A stretch of DNA of 64,000 nt from Squalus acanthias (taxonomy: Eukaryota): contig CM059432.1 in the NCBI GenBank assembly GCA_030390025.1, forward strand, positions 15,254,001 through 15,318,000, written 5' to 3'. Positions 1,587 to 62,972 of this stretch are shown here, piece by piece. Numbering within the stretch: position 1 is the stretch's first letter; each line of letters begins with the position of its first letter. The translations under genes were made by a program, and so were the position numbers. The notes beneath the pieces were generated by a model that worked only from the letters and a program-made list of their open reading frames with translations, was not told the DNA's origin and searched no databases.

Positions 1587-3194
1587 ACAAAAACGGGAAC
1601 TTTCTATGGCCCCTGTGACAATATATGACAGCATTGCAACAGAGGTTCCAGAGCCAGATGGTTTCGGCCTGTTCCTGTTAGGGAGCCAGCCTGAAAAGTA
1701 TTTCAGCGAGGCTACAGCACCTCCTTAAAATTTGAGAGCCACAACTAAACAACAAGCGGTTAGGAACCCCATTAACCTCCTTTGTCATTATTAATTGTGA
1801 AGCACAAGAATAGCTCTCCTAGGATCCAAAGGGTTGTCAGCCTGTGAGATAACACTTTAACATATCTACTTGACCTTTCCTTGGTGTAGGGTCCACAGGG
1901 AATCTTGTCAATGCCTGGCAATTAATCTTCAGTCACAAAGTGGCTCCCGACCATTTTAATGGAGCATTAAGGACATATTGAACTATACATTTAATCGTGT
2001 AATTACTTTTTACAACAATCTGAAAGGGGATGACATCCATTTCTGATGTCACAGACCTGCTAATATTTACTAAAACCAATTGCCTCTTTTCTTTTAACTT
2101 CATTATATTCACAATAGGCTCAAGTGAAACACACAACTTAATATCCACTGTTGTAAGAATTGATCTTAATGACTCCTTAGTCCTGACATTGGGATTAATA
2201 ATTTGATATCCTATGGTGGTCAAGAAAGCTTCAGTTCACATGCAGTGTGAATTCACCACCGTTCTTTGTGTCAAGGAGGCAGTTCCGTCGCTAGCTCACA
2301 GCCTGGGATACGAGATTACTGTAGAAATACAAGTCTTTGTGAATGACTATCAGACCTGCGCTTACTTAAGTAACATTCCACTTTCATTAAACACTAACCC
2401 GCTGTCACCCTTTCACTTGCTGAAGCATTCAAATAAATAACGGTCACACATTGAGGGGGAAGAAAGGCAACTACTGGAAAATCTCAATGAATAGGTAGAG
2501 CCATTCCACCCCCCCCCCCCCCCCCCCCACCCCCCCAAGCAATAACCTCTCCTGCATGCTGGTTATGTGGGGAAAAAGGGCATTTTTAATAATGTCTTTG
2601 TGCCTGTATTTATATATGTGGAATGGAAAGCTGATTCCATGCTTCCAGCCGGGAATGATCCTCTCACGAAGTATATAGTGGGATATTACGAGCGTTATTG
2701 GATGTTAAAACCAGGGGCTATGCACCTCTGCCAGGCCCTCGTTGCTGGTGCCACTTCCGATGGAAGCACGGGAGAGCAGGATCAGGTCCTTACGGTTCTG
2801 TGGGCTCCCTCGACCCTATGGTACCTCGGCCAGATGATTATTCTTCATATGCCAGTCTAGATAGTGAAGATTGGGAACTATTCAACCATAGCAGGCATTG
2901 CCCAGCAACACACACGCACGCACACAAGCTGATGTCAATGTGTAGCAATCTACCTCAGGGGGGACAGGCACCCGTTGTAGCACTTTACTGGCATCACCTA
3001 CCTACAGATCCGTTGTCTCAACACTGACGACCGATTGAACCTGAGTATTTATACACCGTGCATTTCCCACAGACCCACCAGGGGAAGAAATTTTAAAATA
3101 TTTCTAAGCATATAAACATTATTTAAATTTAGCCATCCGGCTACAGCTCGGATGAGAATGCAGAAGCAACTCTGCTGAACCCATCGATTAAAAT

Positions 3195-12884: not shown

Positions 12885-14186
12885 TGGTCTCCTTATTTAA
12901 GGAAGGATATACTTGCATTCGAGGCAGTTCAGAGACGATTCACTAAGTTAATTCCAGAGATGAGGGGGTTTGACTTATGAGGAAAGGTTGAGCAGGCTGG
13001 GCCTATACTCATTGGGGCAGAAATTAGGCTCGCCACGGGTGAGTACGCACTATGTACTCACCTGTGGACGGAACGAAAGTGCCGGTTTCTTGCATGCACT
13101 GTGCATGCGCGGGAAACCGGCACTTCCATTCCCCTGAAGGAAGGGGTTCAGAAGTCGAACGCGCACGCCGGAGGGCCAGCGTGTTCGCCTCGCACTTCGG
13201 GTTTTTTTACAGGTTCCTCCGTGAGGGTAAACACGGAGAAGATGCACATTGAGAAAGGAGGCGCAAGGCCTTCTTTTAACAAGGTAAGTGTTGATTTTAT
13301 TAAAATTTAAACATTTTTTTCACAGATTTATCTTTTTTAATTACTTTAAAGAAAAGTAAGTTTAGTTTTAGCCCCGTTAAAAAGTGTAATTAATTGTTTC
13401 AAAAATTTAAATTTGTGTTTAAAATAGTTAATTAATGTAATTTATAATTATTTTAAAAATGTGATTTTTAAAACAAAAAATATTTGTAGTTTTAGGGATG
13501 TTTTGGGGTCGATCTGTATTCATAGATTTGACAGGTCCTGTCAAATCTATGAATGAAAGATGGTCTGCTGCCATTGGCTCGCCATGGCCCACGTGATCCC
13601 AGGGGATGCATCGCACTAACTACGCCCCTGGGATACGCAAGCACTGCGCGCCGGCAGTTGGAGGAGGCCCAGGACCGGAATCCCCCCGCGGGCCCAGGGG
13701 TCAACGGCAGGCGCGGTAGGTAGGTGCGCGCGCGATCCTTGCACCCGCGGGAAGCCAGGGAGCCGAATTTCTGGCCCATAGGAATTTAGAAGAATGAGAG
13801 GTGATCTTATCGAAACATATAAGATACTGAGGGGGCTCGACAAGGTAGATGCAGAGAGGATGTTTCCCCTCATGGGGAAATCTAGAACGCGGGGGCACAG
13901 TTTCAGAATAAAGGGTTGCCCTTTCAGAACTGAGATGAGGAGGAATTTCTTCTCTCAGAGGGTCGTAAATTTGTGGAATTCTCTGCCGCAGAGAGCCGTG
14001 GAGGCTGGGTCATTAAATACATTTAAGGTGGAGATAGACAGATTTTTGCATTTTAAGGGAGTGAAGGGTTATGGGGAGCGGGCAGGGAAGTGGCTTTGAG
14101 CCCAAGATCAGCCATGATCTTATTGAATGGCGGAGCAGGCTCGAGGGGCCAAATGGCCTATTCCTGCTCCTATTTCTTATGTTCTT
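12885..14186 (+). mobile_element. CR1 LINE 3' end split by a MITE
   Basis: WSPYLRKD...RLGLYS then EFRRMRGDLIETYKILRG after the insertion; TSD TCTTCTGATG at 12877-12886 and 14183-14192. Confidence 0.92.
13014..13777 (+). mobile_element. PIF/Harbinger-like MITE (copy 1 of a pair)
   Basis: TIR GGGGCAGAAATT/AATTTCTGGCCC; flanks ATT/ATA; cleanly interrupts a CR1; near-identical inverted copy at 62213-62972. Confidence 0.9.
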
Positions 14187-17140: not shown

Positions 17141-17336
17141 GTAATCTAAGATGATACTTCAGTGTAGTACTTAGGGCAGTGCTGCACTGGCAGAGGTGCT
17201 GTCTTTCAGATGAGACATTCAACTGTCTGCTCTCTTAGGTGGACATAAAAGATCACATAGCACTAATCGAAAAAGACCAAGAAGTGTTCTAGGTAACACG
17301 TATCCCTCAATCAACACCACCAGAACAGATTACCAA

Positions 17337-19006
17337 TGCGAAATACTGCAGATGCTGGAATTCTGAAATAAAAACAGAAAATGCTGGAAATACTCAGCAG
17401 GTCAGGCAGCATCTGTGAAGAGAGATACAGAGTTAACGTTTCAGGTCAATGACCTTTCGTCAGAACTGGAAAATGTTAGAGATGGAACAGGTTTTAAGCA
17501 AGTGCAGGGGCAGGGAAAGGGGGGAGGGGAGGAAAGAACAAAAGGGAAGGTCTGTGATAGGATGGAAGGCAGGAGAGATTAAATGACAAAAGGGATGATT
17601 GTACAGAGCAAAAGGAGACGGTAATGGGACAAGTTAAGAAACAAAAGATGAGTCTAGAGAGGTGTAAATGGGAATGGCAGAATCATCAACAGCTGCCATC
17701 TGAAAAATTAGGGGCCGAGGTTATGATCTGAAATTGTTGAACTCGGTATTGAGTCCAGAAGGCTGTAAAGTGCCTAACAGAAAGATGAGGTGTTGTTCCT
17801 CAAGCTTACATTGAGCTTCATTAGAACAGTGTAGGAAGTCAAGGACAAAGAGGTCGAAGGGCCGAATGGCCTACTCCTGCTTCTATTTTTCTATGTTTCT
17901 ATGTCAAAGTGGGAGTGGAGCAGAGAATTAAAGTGACAGGCGACCGGAAGTTCGGGATCATGCTTGCGGACTGAACGGAGGTGTTCCGCAAAGCAGTCAC
18001 CCAATCTGCATTTTGTCTCCCCAATGTAGAGGAGACCGCATCGTGAGCAGCGAATACAGTATACTAAATTGTAAGAAGTACAAGTAAATCGCTGTTTCAC
18101 CTGGAAGGAGTGTTTGGGGCCCTGGACGGTGGGAATGGAGGAGGTAAAAGGGCAGGTGTTGCATCTCCTGCGCTTGCACGGGAAGGTGCCACGAGAAGGG
18201 GAAGGGGTGTTGGGGGTGATTGAGGAGTGGACCAGGGTGTCGCGGAGGGAGCGGTCCCTTTGGAATGCTGAAAGGGGAGGGGAGGGGAGGGAAAGATGTG
18301 TTTGGTGGTGGGATCACGCTGGAGGTGGCAGAAATGGAAATCTGAGGATGATCCGTTGAATGTGGAGGCTGGTGGGGTGAAAGGTGAGGACAAGGGGAAC
18401 TCTATCGTGGTTCCGGGAGGGAGGGGAAGGGGTGAGAGCAGAAGTGTGGGAAATGGAACGGACACGGTCAACGGCCGTGTCAACCACGGTACAGGGGAAT
18501 CCTCGGTTGAGGAAAAAAGAAGACATATCGGAAACACTAGTATGGAAGGTGGCATCGTCAGAACAGATGCGACAGGAGGCGGAGAAACTGGGAGAATGGG
18601 ATAGAGTCCTTATAGGAAGCAGGGTGGGAGGAAGTGTAGTCAAGGTAGCTGTGCGAGTCAGTGGGCTTATAATGGATGTTTGTCGATAGCCTATCCCCAG
18701 AAATGGAGACAGAGAAGTCGAGGAAGGGAAGGGAAGAGTCGGAGATGGACCATGTGAAGGTGAGGAAAGGGTGGAAATTGGAAGCAAAGTGAACGAAATT
18801 TTCCAGTTCGGGGCGAGAGCAGGAAACAGCATCGATACAGTCATCAATGTACCGGAAAAAGAGGCGAGGGAGGGGACCTGAGTAGGACTGGAACAAAGAA
18901 TGTTGCACATCTCCCAGGAAAAGGCAGGCATAGCTAGGACCCATGCGGGTTCCCATAGCAACACCTTTTATTTGGAGGAAGTGAGTGGAGTCACTTCCTC
19001 CAAATA
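17337..19006 (-). mobile_element. Penelope-like retroelement (RT + GIY-YIG endonuclease), 5'-truncated, decayed
   Basis: FLQIKGVAMGTRMGPSYA...FFRYIDD (PLE RT); NLVYCIRCSRCGLLYIGETKCRLGDCFAEH (GIY-YIG); pLTR tail; small CR1 tail inserted at about 17855-17902. Confidence 0.93.
17431..17467 (-). ncRNA. Minimal type I hammerhead ribozyme motif in PLE pLTR
   Basis: Minus strand AGUU-CUGACGA-A-AGGUC(AUU)GACCU-GAAA-CGUU-AACU: conserved core, stem II, palindromic stem III, 4-bp stem I. Confidence 0.75.
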
Positions 19007-19551
19007 TCTGGTCTTTTGTCTCATTGCTGTTTGTGAGGCCTTGCTGTATTTCATACAACAGTGACTATACTGGTTGGGAAGTGCTTTTGGATGTCCCGCA
19101 GTCATAAAAAGTGCTCTATAAACGCAAGATCTTTCTAATCTTCTTTGCTTTACAGCATTACCGGGATTGCTTTCACCCGCTAAATTATAGGTGACTAGCA
19201 TTCCAAATTCTTAGCTACTGACGTGCAATAACCTCACATTTCCGTATTAAATGGAAAATCTTGGTTAGTGAGGAATTTCTTAATTTGAGATTCCCGATTG
19301 TTTCCACTGAACTTTACCATCAGTGGAGCCACCAGAGTAACCAGTAATGGGATCTAATTCTACTCCTTTCTTTTGTTAATTTTGTGGTCATCAAAAGTGG
19401 GAAATATGCCAGGGACTGGTACACATTCGCTTTCATGTGCCCAGTGTCAGTGTCAAGCACTTCCAGGTCAGGTACAGCATAACTAGATACAGAGTAAAGA
19501 TCAATCTGCTTTGCCACAATGATGTGACTACACTTCAAAAGTACTTCATTG

Positions 19552-34002: not shown

Positions 34003-34870
34003 GGGCTGGATTTTACCAGCCCTGAGGAGGCGGGTTTGGAGGCGGGACTGCTGGGAAAATGGGAAAAATTGGGAGCGGGTCACAACCCTGCTCCCAACCC
34101 GCCTCCGAACCATCTTCCCGGGAGGTGGGTCCCCGACTCGCGCAGGGATCCGTCTCCTAGCGGCGGGAAGGGGATTAGAGCCAATTAACTGCCTGTTACC
34201 AGGTAGTTAACAGGCAGTTAAGAGGCTTTTCCCCATTTTCAGCCTGCTGATGCGGGCTTCCCGACGGCGGGAAACCCCGCCAGGGTCAGCGAAGCGAGCT
34301 GTGGGTCTGCTGCAGTGTAAGTGTGCAAATGACAGCTGCAGAGGTATTGTGATGGGTGCAATGGTGCCCAGGTAAGTATGACAGGTGAGAGAATGTAGTG
34401 AGAAATATTTTTATTCTGTTTATATGTATCTGCAGGTGACAAGATTTGATGTTTCTGTGAAGCCTCATCTGATCGGGAGAATTGACAGATGGCTTCTGCA
34501 ATCTCATATGCAGCTGCCATCTGTTTTCTCCTAAGGAGAGAGTCATTGGTGAGCCTGGGTGAAAGGGCTCACCTTTGGACAGTGATTGTCAGTGTTTGAC
34601 AGCACCTCAATGCTGTCAAACACTGACAATTCATCTGTCAAAAAATTATGGTGCCTGTCCCTTTAAGAAGACCGGCAGATGAAGCGTCACGCACTGACGT
34701 CATCTGACACCGGCTTTCCCTTAATTGGCCGGCAAACCCGCAGGGCGGGCTTAACAAGGTCAATCAGGGGAAAATAGCATCAGGTCATCAGACGTCGCTG
34801 GGGGGCGGGACTAGAACCCGGAAACCAGCAGTCCCGCTCCCAACGCGCCTCCTCGGCTAAGATCGCGGCC
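34003..34870. mobile_element. Harbinger-like non-autonomous element
   Basis: GGGCTGGATTTTA start, TAAGATCGCGGCC end, flanks CCA/TCA; CpG-rich ends; internal 20-bp hairpin. Confidence 0.72.
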
Positions 34871-56071: not shown

Positions 56072-56745
56072 GGGGGAAAAATTGGGTCGCGCCCCCTTTG
56101 GGGCTCTAACTTCGCTGGGGTACTACTTTTAGCGTCCCGAAAAAGTTAGCGCCCCCACACCCGAAATTCACCGGTAGCGCCCCAAGAGGGAGGCGGAGCA
56201 CTACTGGAAGCGCTCCGCCTCCCTCTTGGGGCGCTGCGAGTGAATATCGCGGCACTATGTGCCGCGGTACTGCAGGCCTTCCTCCCCTTACTAAAGGGGA
56301 GGGGCCTAGCGCAGCGCAACTCGGGGCCCAGCTGGGCCACCAGGGATCGGAGTGCCGGCAAACGAGCCCAGCACTCAAGAGAAGTGCCGGGCCCATGGAG
56401 TGCAGGTGGCCAGCAACAGAAATAGCCGCCCGGCACCTTCCCTTTAATTGGCGCCTCCCCGGTCGCAGGTAGGCCCCCCTGACCCCGTCGGACATAGCGT
56501 CCGGCGGGAAGTCAGGGGACGCTACCGAAGATCGCAGCCGGGGTGCAAGCGGGGCGCTGCGCATGGCGATGACATCATCGCCGGCAGCGCAGCACCGCAG
56601 GGCACTAACCGCCGCCGCTAACGTCCCACTGAATTTCGCGGGAGTTGTTAGTGGCGCCACGCCCAGGCGCTAGTTGCTTTGCGCCTCCCGTTAGCGCCCT
56701 CTTAGGGCGCTAACGGGAGGCGCAAATCAACTGAATTTTTCCCCC
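56072..56745 (-). mobile_element. Harbinger-like MITE, related ends, different interior
   Basis: Perfect TIR GGGGGAAAAATT/AATTTTTCCCCC; flanks TTG/CTG; 23-bp subterminal palindrome. Confidence 0.88.
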
Positions 56746-57119
56746 CTGGTCTCCTTACCTAAGGAAAGACATACTTGCCATAGAGGGAGTGCAGCGAAGG
56801 CTCACTAGACTGGTTCCTGGGATGAGGGGATTGTCCTATGAGGAGAGATTGAGTAAACTAGGCCTTTATTCCTCAGCGTTTAGAAGAATGAAAGGTGATC
56901 TAATTGAAACACATAAAATTCTTAAGGGGCTTGACAGGGTTAATGCTGGGAAATGTTTCCCCTGGCTGGGGAATCTAGAACACGGGGTCACAGTCTCAGA
57001 ATAAGGGGTCGGCCATTCAGGACTGAGATGAGGAGAAATTTCTTCACTGAGAGGGTGGTGAATCTTTGGAATTCTCTACCCCAGAGAGCTGTGGATGCTC
57101 AGTCGTTCATTATATTCTA

Positions 57120-58152
57120 CATGATGTGGAGATGCCGGCGTTGGACTGGGGTGGACAAAAATGAGAAGTCGCACAACACCAGGTTATAGTCCAACAGATT
57201 TATTTAAAATTACAAGCTTTCGGAGCTGTCGCCCCTTCCTCAGGTAGAGTTACTGTGAGACAATCTACCAGAATTCACAGAATATAAACACAGAGAAAAT
57301 GCATTCAATCTTTCCCTACATCAAAGACACACTAAGAGCACAGCCAAGACAATGAGATGTGTCCCAGGGGGTCCAACGTGTCAAAACACCTGCTGGCTGC
57401 ATATCCTCTCCATTTGGGTTTGTTTCTTGTGTTTGTTTCTTGTGTTTGTTTTTTTTAAAAAGCTGGAAAGACCGGCAACGATGTCAAGTCACGTTCTGTA
57501 TCGTGACATGAACCCGATATCCCGATTGAGGCCGTCCTCATGAGTGTGGAACTTGGCTATCAGTTTCTGCTCGATGATTTTGCGTTGTCGTGTATCCCGA
57601 AGGCCGCCTTGGAGAACGCTAACCCGCAGATCCGAGGCTGAATGCCCTTGACTGCTGAAGTCAAGGGCATTCAGCCTCGGATCTGCGGGTTAGCGTTCTC
57701 CAAGGCGGCCTTCGGGATACACGACAACGCAAAATCATCGAGCAGAAACTGATAGCCAAGTTCCACACTCATGAGGACGGCCTCAATCGGGATATCGGGT
57801 TCATGTCACGATACAGAACGTGACTTGACATCGTTGCCGGTCTTTCCAGCTTTTTAAAAAAAACAAACACAAGAAACAAACACAAGAAACAAACCCAAAT
57901 GGAGAGGATATGCAGCCAGCAGGTGTTTTGACACGTTGGACCCCCTGGGACACATCTCATTGTCTTGGCTGTGCTCTTAGTGTGTCTTTGATGTAGGGAA
58001 AGATTGAATGCATTTTCTCTGTGTTTATATTCTGTGAATTCTGGTAGATTGTCTCACAGTAACTCTACCTGAGGAAGGGGCGACAGCTCCGAAAGCTTGT
58101 AATTTTAAATAAATCTGTTGGACTATAACCTGGTGTTGTGCGACTTCTCATT
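57120..58152. mobile_element. Palindromic Penelope-like insertion (inverted 3' ends)
   Basis: 494-bp arms 57160-57653 and 57659-58152 with a 5-nt loop; each arm encodes a GIY-YIG C-terminus (GHSASDLRVSVLQ..EQKLIAKF.T..GLNRD); TSD TCATTATATTCTA. Confidence 0.9.
58066..58101 (+). ncRNA. Minimal hammerhead-like motif (mirror copy at 57211-57246, minus strand)
   Basis: UAC-CUGAGGA-A-GGGGC(GACA)GCUCC-GAAA-GCUU-GUA. Confidence 0.65.
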
Positions 58153-59214
58153 ATATTCTAGACAGAGGTTGATAAATCTTTGGGAACAAAGGGAATTAAG
58201 GGATATGGGGATAGTGCGGGAAGGTGGAGTTGAGGTAGAAGATCAGCCATGATTTTGTTGAATGGTGGAGCAAGCGCAAAGGGCCAAATGGCCGACTCCT
58301 GCTCCTATTTCTTATGTTATTATGAATCATTTTTTTCCCTCAGGACCTCAGAACTGTGGGACTACTTACATCCCTCAGTCTCCTCTTCCTCGTATAGTCT
58401 ATAGGGTTTTAAAACCTTGGCTTGACGTGATTTAACTGATATTACTGCGTACTTCGTCTTCTTCTCCTGCTCTTTTCAACCTTAATCGTGTCCTGTACGA
58501 TTGGTCTTGGCCCTGCACATAGATTTCTCAAAATAATACAGTAAACCATTTTTCCCCGCAAGTAAACTTTGAACACTCAGGATCTTTCATGCATCCCCAA
58601 TGCTCCCAGCTCAGATACTAACTAAAAATTCCTTTCACGATGGTCTTCCCCGGCCAACTTTGACCTTTCAAAGTTTTCATTTCAACTTTAAGTTCTCTTT
58701 GTTCCCGCAGTGTATTCCACTTAACCTTTTCAGTCAGAGAGACCTTACATAGCTTTGGACAACATGCATTCAGGACATTATTCATTTATGTTTCTGTTCG
58801 CATTGATGTCTTTAAATTAATAATCGTGACATTTCGTGAATAACTGGATACAAGTCAATAACTGAGCAAAGAAACTTTCAGTAATTAACAGGGACAATCA
58901 ATATCCAGAGTTACAATTTCCAGCTGGGTTTAAAGGATAGAAATCAAGTAAGTGAAGTTGTAACAATCAGGACTTAATGTATTGCGACTGTCTGGGTAAA
59001 AGCTGGATGGGAAAGGTCGTAGAAAAAGACGTTTTTAAGCTGCTTTTTCATTGTCCTTTGAAGGAATTTGTCCCCCTCATTCCCGAGCTGTGCCGCACTC
59101 ACCCAGTGACAACCCCAATGAAAACTTAATGGTTTCACAAAGACTCGCGACCATTTTTTATACCCTACCTTCACAGAAGCTGAGCTTAGTGTAACTGGAA
59201 AATTTACATTGGAG

Positions 59215-62212: not shown

Positions 62213-62972
62213 GGGCCAGAAATTCGGCTCCCTGGCTTCCCGCGGGTGCAAGGATTGCGCGCGCACCTACCTACCGCGCCTGCCGTTGACCCCTGGGCCC
62301 ACGAGCAATTCGGGTCCTGGGCCTCCTCCAACTGCTGGCGCGCAGGGCTTGCGTATCCCAGGGGCGTAGTTAGTGTGATGTGTCCCCTGGGATCACGTGG
62401 GCCATGGAGAGCCAATGGCAGCAGACCATCTTTCATTCATAGATTTGACAGGACCTGTCAAATCTATGAATACAGATCGGCCCCAAACATCCCTAAAACT
62501 ACAAATAATTTTTTTTTTTAATCACATTTTTAAAATAACTATAAATTACATTAATTAACCATTTTAAACAAAAATTTAAATTTTTGAAACAATTAATTAC
62601 ACTTTTTAACGGGGTTAAAACTAAACTTACCTTTCTTTAAAGTAATTAAAAAAGATAAATCTGTGAAAAAAATGTTTAAATTTTTATAAAATCAACACTT
62701 ACCTTGTTAAAAGAAGGCCTTGCACCTCCTTTTTCAATGTGCATCTTCTCCGTGCTTGCCCTCACGGAGGAACCTGTAAAAAAACCCGAAGTGCGAGGCG
62801 AACGCGCTGGCCCTCCGGCGTGCGCGTTCGACCTCTGAACCCCTTCCTTCAGGGGAACGGAAGTGTCGGTTTCCCGCGCATGCGCAGTGCATGCAAGAAA
62901 CCGGCACTTTCGTTCCGTCCACGGGTGAGTACATAGTGCGTACTCACCCGTGGCGAGCCTAATTTCTGCCCC
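62213..62972 (-). mobile_element. PIF/Harbinger-like MITE (copy 2 of a pair)
   Basis: TIR GGGCCAGAAATT/AATTTCTGCCCC; perfect TSD ATT; reverse complement of 13014-13777. Confidence 0.92.

Follow-up and report, generated by a model that had tools for sequence, protein, structure and literature searches.

Endonuclease-containing Penelope-like elements (PLEs), among them Pen2a of Adineta, are described in the available parts of two reports (PMC3846280, PMC8557442) as carrying an inverted, 5′-truncated copy at their 5′ end, a tail of 30–40 bp at one end only, a target duplication and a palindromic junction. In these reports, the junction is attributed to self-priming, for which an antisense template is considered probable, and the tail to resolution by the endonuclease; the counts presented here instead favour priming from both target ends. 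Self-priming is the explanation found in print (PMC3846280), and the accessible text of PMC8557442 names the origin of the tandem and inverted repeats of PLEs as an open problem. According to the available part of a third report (PMC11167929), the purified protein of the Anolis Poseidon PLE PAc cuts and extends both target strands in vitro and starts at two sites that bracket the tail; a dimer is predicted and the pLTR contains a hammerhead. Inverted insertions are not addressed in that part, and the start sites are given without a strand difference, whereas in all but one of the 82 intact family B palindromes studied here the start site differs between the two ends.

Related products are known from other systems. 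Twin priming of L1, as far as described in the accessible sections of PMC4245944, resembles the present case in its two primers from one staggered break, the inversion, the full-length target duplication and the microhomology joint. A different kind of junction arises when a free 3′ end pairs at a short inverted microhomology and is briefly extended, leaving a joint of 0–5 nt, as in the snap-back 5′ junctions of R2 (PRINT; PMC11371274). Foldback inversions of 5–34 bp at yeast breaks (PMC11724301), which are made by a host polymerase plus end joining, and inverted duplications at L1-induced ends (bioRxiv 10.1101/2024.12.14.628481) are of the same kind, judging from the available parts of these sources. 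Unlike these snap-back cases, the junction reported here belongs to a natural, fixed PLE insertion; the junction kind as such is not PLE-specific. Published work thus already covers the palindrome architecture, the notion of self-priming and junctions of the snap-back kind. The literature searched yielded no description of double-ended copying of the same RNA in PLEs, nor one that explains PLE inversions by two primers.

The window analysed here, a stretch of 64,000 nt from the genome of Squalus acanthias (contig CM059432.1, positions 15,254,001–15,318,000), contains a 16-bp hairpin at the 5′ end of a PLE at 17–19 kb (family A) and a 494-bp palindrome at 57.6 kb (family B). A preliminary description, made from the window sequence, had interpreted both as a shared self-priming signature. 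In a genome with thousands of young PLE copies, such models can be tested by counting. We regard it as likely, with a probability of about 0.7, that the two structures differ in origin: the hairpin would be a rare snap-back, and the palindrome the product of reverse transcription primed from both cut ends, with the cDNAs joined at a 3-base overlap.

Methods

All counts were obtained from one genome assembly of 3.7 Gb. For family B, the first 100 listed places among 3,632 exact genome-wide matches to a 30-mer of the tail yielded a sample of 87 loci. Palindrome centres of family B were in addition searched genome-wide with four gap patterns, allowing centres of ≤30 nt, at four anchors, which returned 20, 19, 24 and 33 loci; the window copy determined the choice of the first anchor, and the other three were selected by conservation alone. 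Removal of four paralogues and the window copy left 91 centres, three of which are shared with the tail-anchored sample.

For family A, 90 loci from the first 100 listed places (2 of them unorientable), 29 earlier loci and the window copy gave a sample of 118, from which 5 duplicates and 16 censored or full-length loci were removed, leaving 97 scored loci. A second family A anchor was scanned genome-wide with a gap pattern that detects only arms holding the whole 12-mer, so that the rate of short snap-backs among the approximately 1,400 5′ ends within 30 nt of it (extrapolated from 9 of 88) is bounded only loosely.

Results

The truncated family A element extends over 17333–18993 on the minus strand (C-terminal half of the RT, GIY-YIG-like domain and pLTR with tail; the native sequence starts at 18993) and separates two halves of a host SINE on the plus strand. 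By repeat comparison, the left half (17160–17332, start approximate) ends in ...ACAGATTA and the right half (19005–19135, end approximate) starts with TATCTGGTC. Exactly as the preliminary description had stated, perfect 16-bp arms (18969–18984 and 18991–19006) enclose the loop GTGGAG at the truncation point, after which the SINE resumes; arms of ≥12 bp did not occur in 20 dinucleotide shuffles of the whole window. In other copies and in the consensus, the native sequence at this point reads ctcctt-TGA-ctccac-TCA-cttcc. The micro-hairpin TGA-ctccac-TCA (18982–18993, minus strand) that had been postulated from the coding sequence is therefore real, its stem being intact in 25 of the 27 other family A loci displayed (29 fetched), and the 16-bp inverted repeat is absent from the family A consensus, which was built from genomic copies in this analysis.

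The arms are perfect over 16 bp, as described before, but they contain less copying than that length implied. The second arm consists of 3 native stem bases, 11 templated bases and the TA at 19005–19006, which is also part of the host SINE (native SINE sequence ACAGATTATCTGGTC), so that the purely templated part is 11 nt only; the rough chance of such a match is 6e-5. The 11 templated nucleotides and the TA together form a 13-nt inverted duplication of 18969–18981, located at 18994–19006 on the plus strand, which is a likely snap-back product. TA is the sole duplicated host sequence at the joint, without a full target duplication, and the junction is unique in the genome according to a junction search of the one assembly. 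In the predicted fold of the cDNA end, the 18982–18993 micro-hairpin lies outside the minimum-energy structure (terminal-pair probability 0.05–0.23). An assembly error was ruled out for this small hairpin by Logan contigs of two samples: one from run X1, possibly the source sample, covers 18964–19200 including the hairpin, and one from run X5, another sample from another study, covers 18989–19200. As the junction is unique, lacks a target duplication and has a 2-nt joint, like the 5–34-bp foldback inversions at yeast breaks, we read the hairpin as the likely trace of an infrequent event in which a stalled cDNA 3′ end snapped back before end joining. It also corresponds to the snap-back class known from R2.

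Further perfect hairpins of 18–24 bp are present in the window at 34585–34630, 13518–13554, 62435–62471, 56176–56235 and 56678–56726. They look built into their repeats, since the 18-bp hairpin recurs twice and those at 56 kb lie in a palindrome-rich repeat.

The family B insertion at 57.6 kb is located inside a CR1-like LINE (label assigned by eye) and is flanked by a 13-bp target duplication with its left copy TCATTATATTCTA at 57107–57119 and its right copy at 58148–58160, both on the plus strand. The tailed arm (57120–57661, minus strand, delimited by copy comparison) includes a 40-nt tail at 57120–57159 (minus strand) that is restricted to the left arm and ends at the ORF start codon. Neither the tail nor the target duplication appeared in the preliminary description. 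Perfect arms of 494 bp (57160–57653 and 57659–58152) surround a 5-nt loop, and the centre (57651–57661, plus strand) is a 3-bp overlap ACT/AGT whose native loop is carried by the tailed arm. The tail-less arm (57659–58152, plus strand) ends at the fixed second start site of the family and overlaps the target duplication by 5 nt. The native sequence at the centre is gaac-ACT-tcagc-AGT-caag; the stem, which had been correctly deduced before, is intact in 26 of the 27 family B loci displayed (28 were fetched, among them three loci that are each represented by two views), and the comparison with other copies shows that the long inverted repeat is not native. For the cDNA end, this stem is also the predicted hairpin of lowest energy (−0.4 kcal/mol, pair probability 0.29–0.60). 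Private mutations common to both window arms were not found among 479 15-mers, a result that is uninformative on copying. Taken alone, the window palindrome fits a fold-back equally well.

In the pLTR, a motif scan located the core CTGAGGA...GAAA, which we take to be hammerhead-like, at 58069–58094 (plus strand), with its mirror at 57218–57243 and a family A analogue in the pLTR at 17439–17463 (minus strand). An Rfam scan of 57000–58300 returned no hammerhead family; the matches at 57.6 kb were miRNA models fitting a perfect hairpin, all below threshold, and were rejected.

By their sequence features, both families fit PLEs of the Penelope/Poseidon type. The consensus ORFs built here encode 902 aa (family A) and 913 aa (family B), in each case as a single ORF with an RT, and the pLTRs occur in direct or inverted orientation with a 30–40-bp tail at one end. 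The RTs are 34% identical between the families. The window copy of family A is 88% identical to its consensus. Pfam gave an RVT_1 match in the family B copy L131 (E=3e-5, below Pfam's cut-off) and no match for the two window fragments of family A. Downstream of a cysteine cluster, inspection by eye shows the motif VY.I.C...YIGET, presumably of GIY-YIG type, for which Pfam returned no GIY-YIG match; among solved structures, none resembling the family B protein was found. A full-length family B element (L132, C15:17092000-17099300) has one frame break, and L106 contains a full-length tail-less arm. The nearest copies are 99–100% identical to the window copy over 200 nt, which indicates that family B is young.

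The palindrome is the normal form of family B. The 87 tail-anchored loci comprise 60 canonical head-to-head arrangements, 1 two-tailed and 3 complex loci, 17 solo or other copies and 6 censored ones. A target duplication of ≥10 bp was found in 55 of 59 loci, window included, and overlaps the start of the tail-less element by 1–5 nt in 46 of these 55. The outer ends of the tail-less arms fall at reference positions 3001–3015 in all 58 called canonical loci, the class itself being defined as 2995–3016. The two arms of a locus diverge by ≤1.6% in 49 of 50 loci, compared with medians of 1.6–8.8% to other copies.

Arm lengths differ in a biased manner. Of the 60 canonical loci, 40 have a longer tail-less arm, 17 have a longer tailed arm and 3 are ties (p=0.003); the tail-less arm exceeds the other by up to 2.7 kb, while the tailed arm is longer in about a third of the loci and by >60 nt in seven. 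The arm ends are ≤30 nt apart in 28 of 60 loci versus 6.9 after permutation; within this group of the tail-anchored sample the sign bias is not significant (16 vs 9, p=0.23). At the inversion joint, overlaps of ≥3 bp were found in 12 of 33 direct joins versus 5% expected, and inserts occur at 25 of 58 called joins, several of them visibly copied from nearby sequence. Inserts copying nearby sequence once or repeatedly were noted in L078, L088, L116, L135, L138, L139, L191 and L274; these presumably resemble polymerase-theta templated insertions.

In three of the 58 called loci (L086, L097 and L118), the tailed arm is the tail alone and stops at the second start site. These are the classic non-duplicating product of twin priming, with arms that copy non-overlapping parts of the RNA. 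A short hairpin at the 5′ end was seen in none of the 17 family B solos (one 8-nt match lies 64 nt away). Thirteen solo rows, two of which represent one duplicated locus, have their own target duplication of 6–14 bp, and 9 of them are tail-less and 4 tailed; both start sites thus also work alone.

Several observations on family B stand apart from the joins. The 5′ breakpoints of short copies cluster at reference 2905–2930, in the pLTR and at the hammerhead-like motif, which ribozyme cleavage or an RT pause could explain. Within other repeats, an identical or almost identical target site is shared by L121, L123 and L140, by L094 and L096, by L069 and L103, by L107 and L148, and by L082 and L136; these shared sites suggest preferred target sequences. 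Inverted 5′ segments with an outer end inside the ORF were found in both families (L038, L110, L116 and L063 in B; L214, L231 and L025 in A), some of them not overlapping the main arm, as in ordinary L1 twin priming.

The genome-wide centres gave the same picture. One tailed and one tail-less arm are combined in 81 of 82 intact palindromes (9 are broken; p ~2e-23 versus independent choice), and in length the tail-less arm exceeds the tailed one in 50 and falls short of it in 24, with 10 ties and 7 unknown (p=0.003). In the 45 joins with an overlap of ≥2 bp, the loop measures ≤0 nt in 8, 1–2 nt in 11, 3–6 nt in 11 and ≥7 nt in 15, against 8%, 18%, 23% and 51% under uniform breakpoints. The fold-backs at pre-existing micro-hairpins expected by the preliminary description are consequently not enriched (3–6-nt loops 11/45 vs 23%), and loops of ≤2 nt are enriched modestly (19/45 vs 26%; p=0.017, the null assuming uniform breakpoints). 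No loop is present in 8 of 61 direct joins; these centre on self-complementary 2- or 4-mers, as expected if two identical 3′ ends anneal together. Where the stem is ≥3 bp and the loop ≥3 nt, the loop is carried by the tail-less arm in 8 of 8 joins. The stem of the window palindrome is used again in L262, L267, L191 (loop on the tailed arm) and L263 (mirror). As a hot spot it was rejected: 3 of 19, a count that includes the otherwise ambiguous L267 by eye, equals the microhomology expectation (13–15%, p ~0.5), and the region was chosen post hoc.

These data bear on the possibility that both ends prime, that either cDNA then snaps back at a micro-hairpin and that its extension anneals to the other cDNA, which would set many near-symmetric centres including that of the window. 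Such a hybrid course allows the loop on either arm. The window stem is thermodynamically favoured and recurrent, and it was once used for an independent, stand-alone short snap-back in a solo copy (L199–L201, 11-bp arms; three paralogues of one event). At the second family A anchor, three turn-arounds were detected, all of them long palindromes with one tail each, which speaks for priming from both ends; two of the three share the same 3-bp stem and 5-nt loop in mirror orientation. The absence of an excess of 3–6-nt loops, the many loops of ≤2 nt and the recurrence of the window stem at microhomology level argue against the hybrid course, as does the equal overlap length of near and far joins (≥3 bp at 7/17 near-symmetric and 5/13 grossly asymmetric joins, p=0.67). 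We consider this course unlikely; given the small numbers at the family B stem, snap-back may still contribute within a two-primer reaction.

Fold-back as the general route, in which a tail-primed cDNA turns back on a native stem of 3 bp and serves as its own template, with later deletion producing asymmetric centres, is largely refuted, and we give it a very low probability. The native stems at both window junctions, the excess of near-symmetric palindromes, the near-identical arms and the self-priming proposed from palindromic junctions in Adineta (accessible part of PMC3846280) speak in its favour. Yet a longer tail-less arm (40:17 and 50:24) is impossible on this route without strand-biased deletion, and the one-tail rule, the kept target duplications and this length bias together mean that fold-back of a tail-primed cDNA cannot produce the family B pattern. 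None of the 8 foldable stems of ≥3 bp has its loop on the tailed arm; loop-less centres and tail-less solo copies with their own duplications also disagree with it, as do the solos of both families, of which 0/73 (A) and 0/17 (B) show a short fold-back.

Family A is abundant, with at least 13,856 genomic copies of one exact 22-mer. Of its 97 scored loci, 74 are solo and 23 have an inverted 5′ segment. An inverted repeat of ≥9 nt at the 5′ joint was found in none of the 73 other solos, leaving the window copy alone among 74; in a shuffled-pair control it occurred in 10 of 1,094. The family A stem was likewise rejected as a fold-back hot spot, the window copy being the only case genome-wide. A signature shared by both families is hence not supported: the hairpin is unique in family A, and the palindrome is the norm in family B. 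Snap-back of a cDNA 3′ end remains the best reading of the 16-bp hairpin, with L199–L201 as one more independent event, but as the general route to PLE 5′ inversions it is not supported.

Internal inverted 5′ segments in family A are short as well as long (37 nt in L154, 61 nt in L020), and those of L214 and L231 are non-duplicating. They lend some plausibility to the idea that the 16-bp arm is a second target-primed cDNA that started internally just downstream of the stall and was aborted after ~13 nt. Only TA is duplicated at the hairpin, however, in contrast to the full duplication in family B (55/59) and to the 11–15 bp kept by L151, L164 and L258, family A loci with a tailed second arm. 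This contrast is not absolute, as the duplication measures 6 bp in L231 and 5 bp in L213, and we rate an aborted second cDNA as improbable. Separately, arms and solo copies of family A often end at reference 2724–2729, ~370 nt upstream of the pLTR end and near the ORF stop (L152, L159, L160, L166, L167, L207, L227, L014 and L017), so that this position may be a third site of priming.

Long palindromes without mismatches are known to arise as artefacts of sequencing. Although the palindrome centre is not bridged by any of the contig pieces listed, a contig of run X1 bridges the outer junction (58130–58201), and the target duplications, the one-sided tail, the resumed host repeats, the many different centres across loci and the small hairpin in contigs of two samples make an assembly or library fold-back hardly credible.

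Discussion

Priming from both target ends would account for family B as follows. A staggered cut of 12–14 bp, the length of which is given by the duplications, would open the target. One target end would prime at the end of the RNA tail and the other at a fixed A/T-rich site ~40 nt upstream, aided by pairing of 1–5 nt; the end positions and the overlaps of target and element are observed. Both primers would likely copy the same RNA; the enzyme primed at the tail would follow behind and displace the first cDNA, PLE RTs not being known to have an RNase H. The tail-less arm would then tend to be longer, and both arms would often stop together. Host end joining would likely link the two 3′ ends through the 1–4 nt microhomologies or short templated inserts seen at the junctions. 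In family A, the likely course is that 3 bp of the cDNA end paired around a 6-nt loop and that the end, after extension by 11–13 nt, unwound and was joined via TA to a trimmed target end.

Both primers probably used one RNA, with which the one-tail rule, the common subfamily of the arms and their coupled lengths agree. Arms of the same subfamily may equally have been copied from two separate RNAs that share one source and sit on an asymmetric dimer, and under a strict trailing-enzyme model a longer tailed arm is obtained only with later trimming or two RNAs. Deletion at palindrome centres after insertion may still contribute.

The preliminary description had set the PLE fold-backs apart from L1 twin priming, which inverts without duplicating. 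The bias towards a longer tail-less arm, together with the loop and overlap counts, indicates that this contrast is likely backwards and that the data fit a duplicating form of twin priming. Family B has a full target duplication, target/element microhomology at the outer end of the second arm and microhomology at the inversion joint. L1 inversions are mostly non-duplicating; in family B, the second start lies at a constant distance of ~40 nt from the first, and as a result the arms usually duplicate each other, unlike in L1.

The hairpin that prompted this work is a minor example of an already described junction kind, and the weight rests on the family-wide result. The counts favour two-ended priming and connect what is found in the genome with the pair of start sites observed in vitro; the predictions can be tested in the existing purified system. 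More tentatively, with the odds slightly against it, PLEs may integrate by programmed double-ended priming, in which one complex seats both ends of a 12–14-bp staggered cut on a single RNA, at two fixed positions separated by 40 nt, and the trailing enzyme copies that RNA again while displacing the cDNA in front. If true, this single arrangement would account at once for the presence of a tail on one side only, the inversion of the pLTRs and the palindromic junctions of PLEs.
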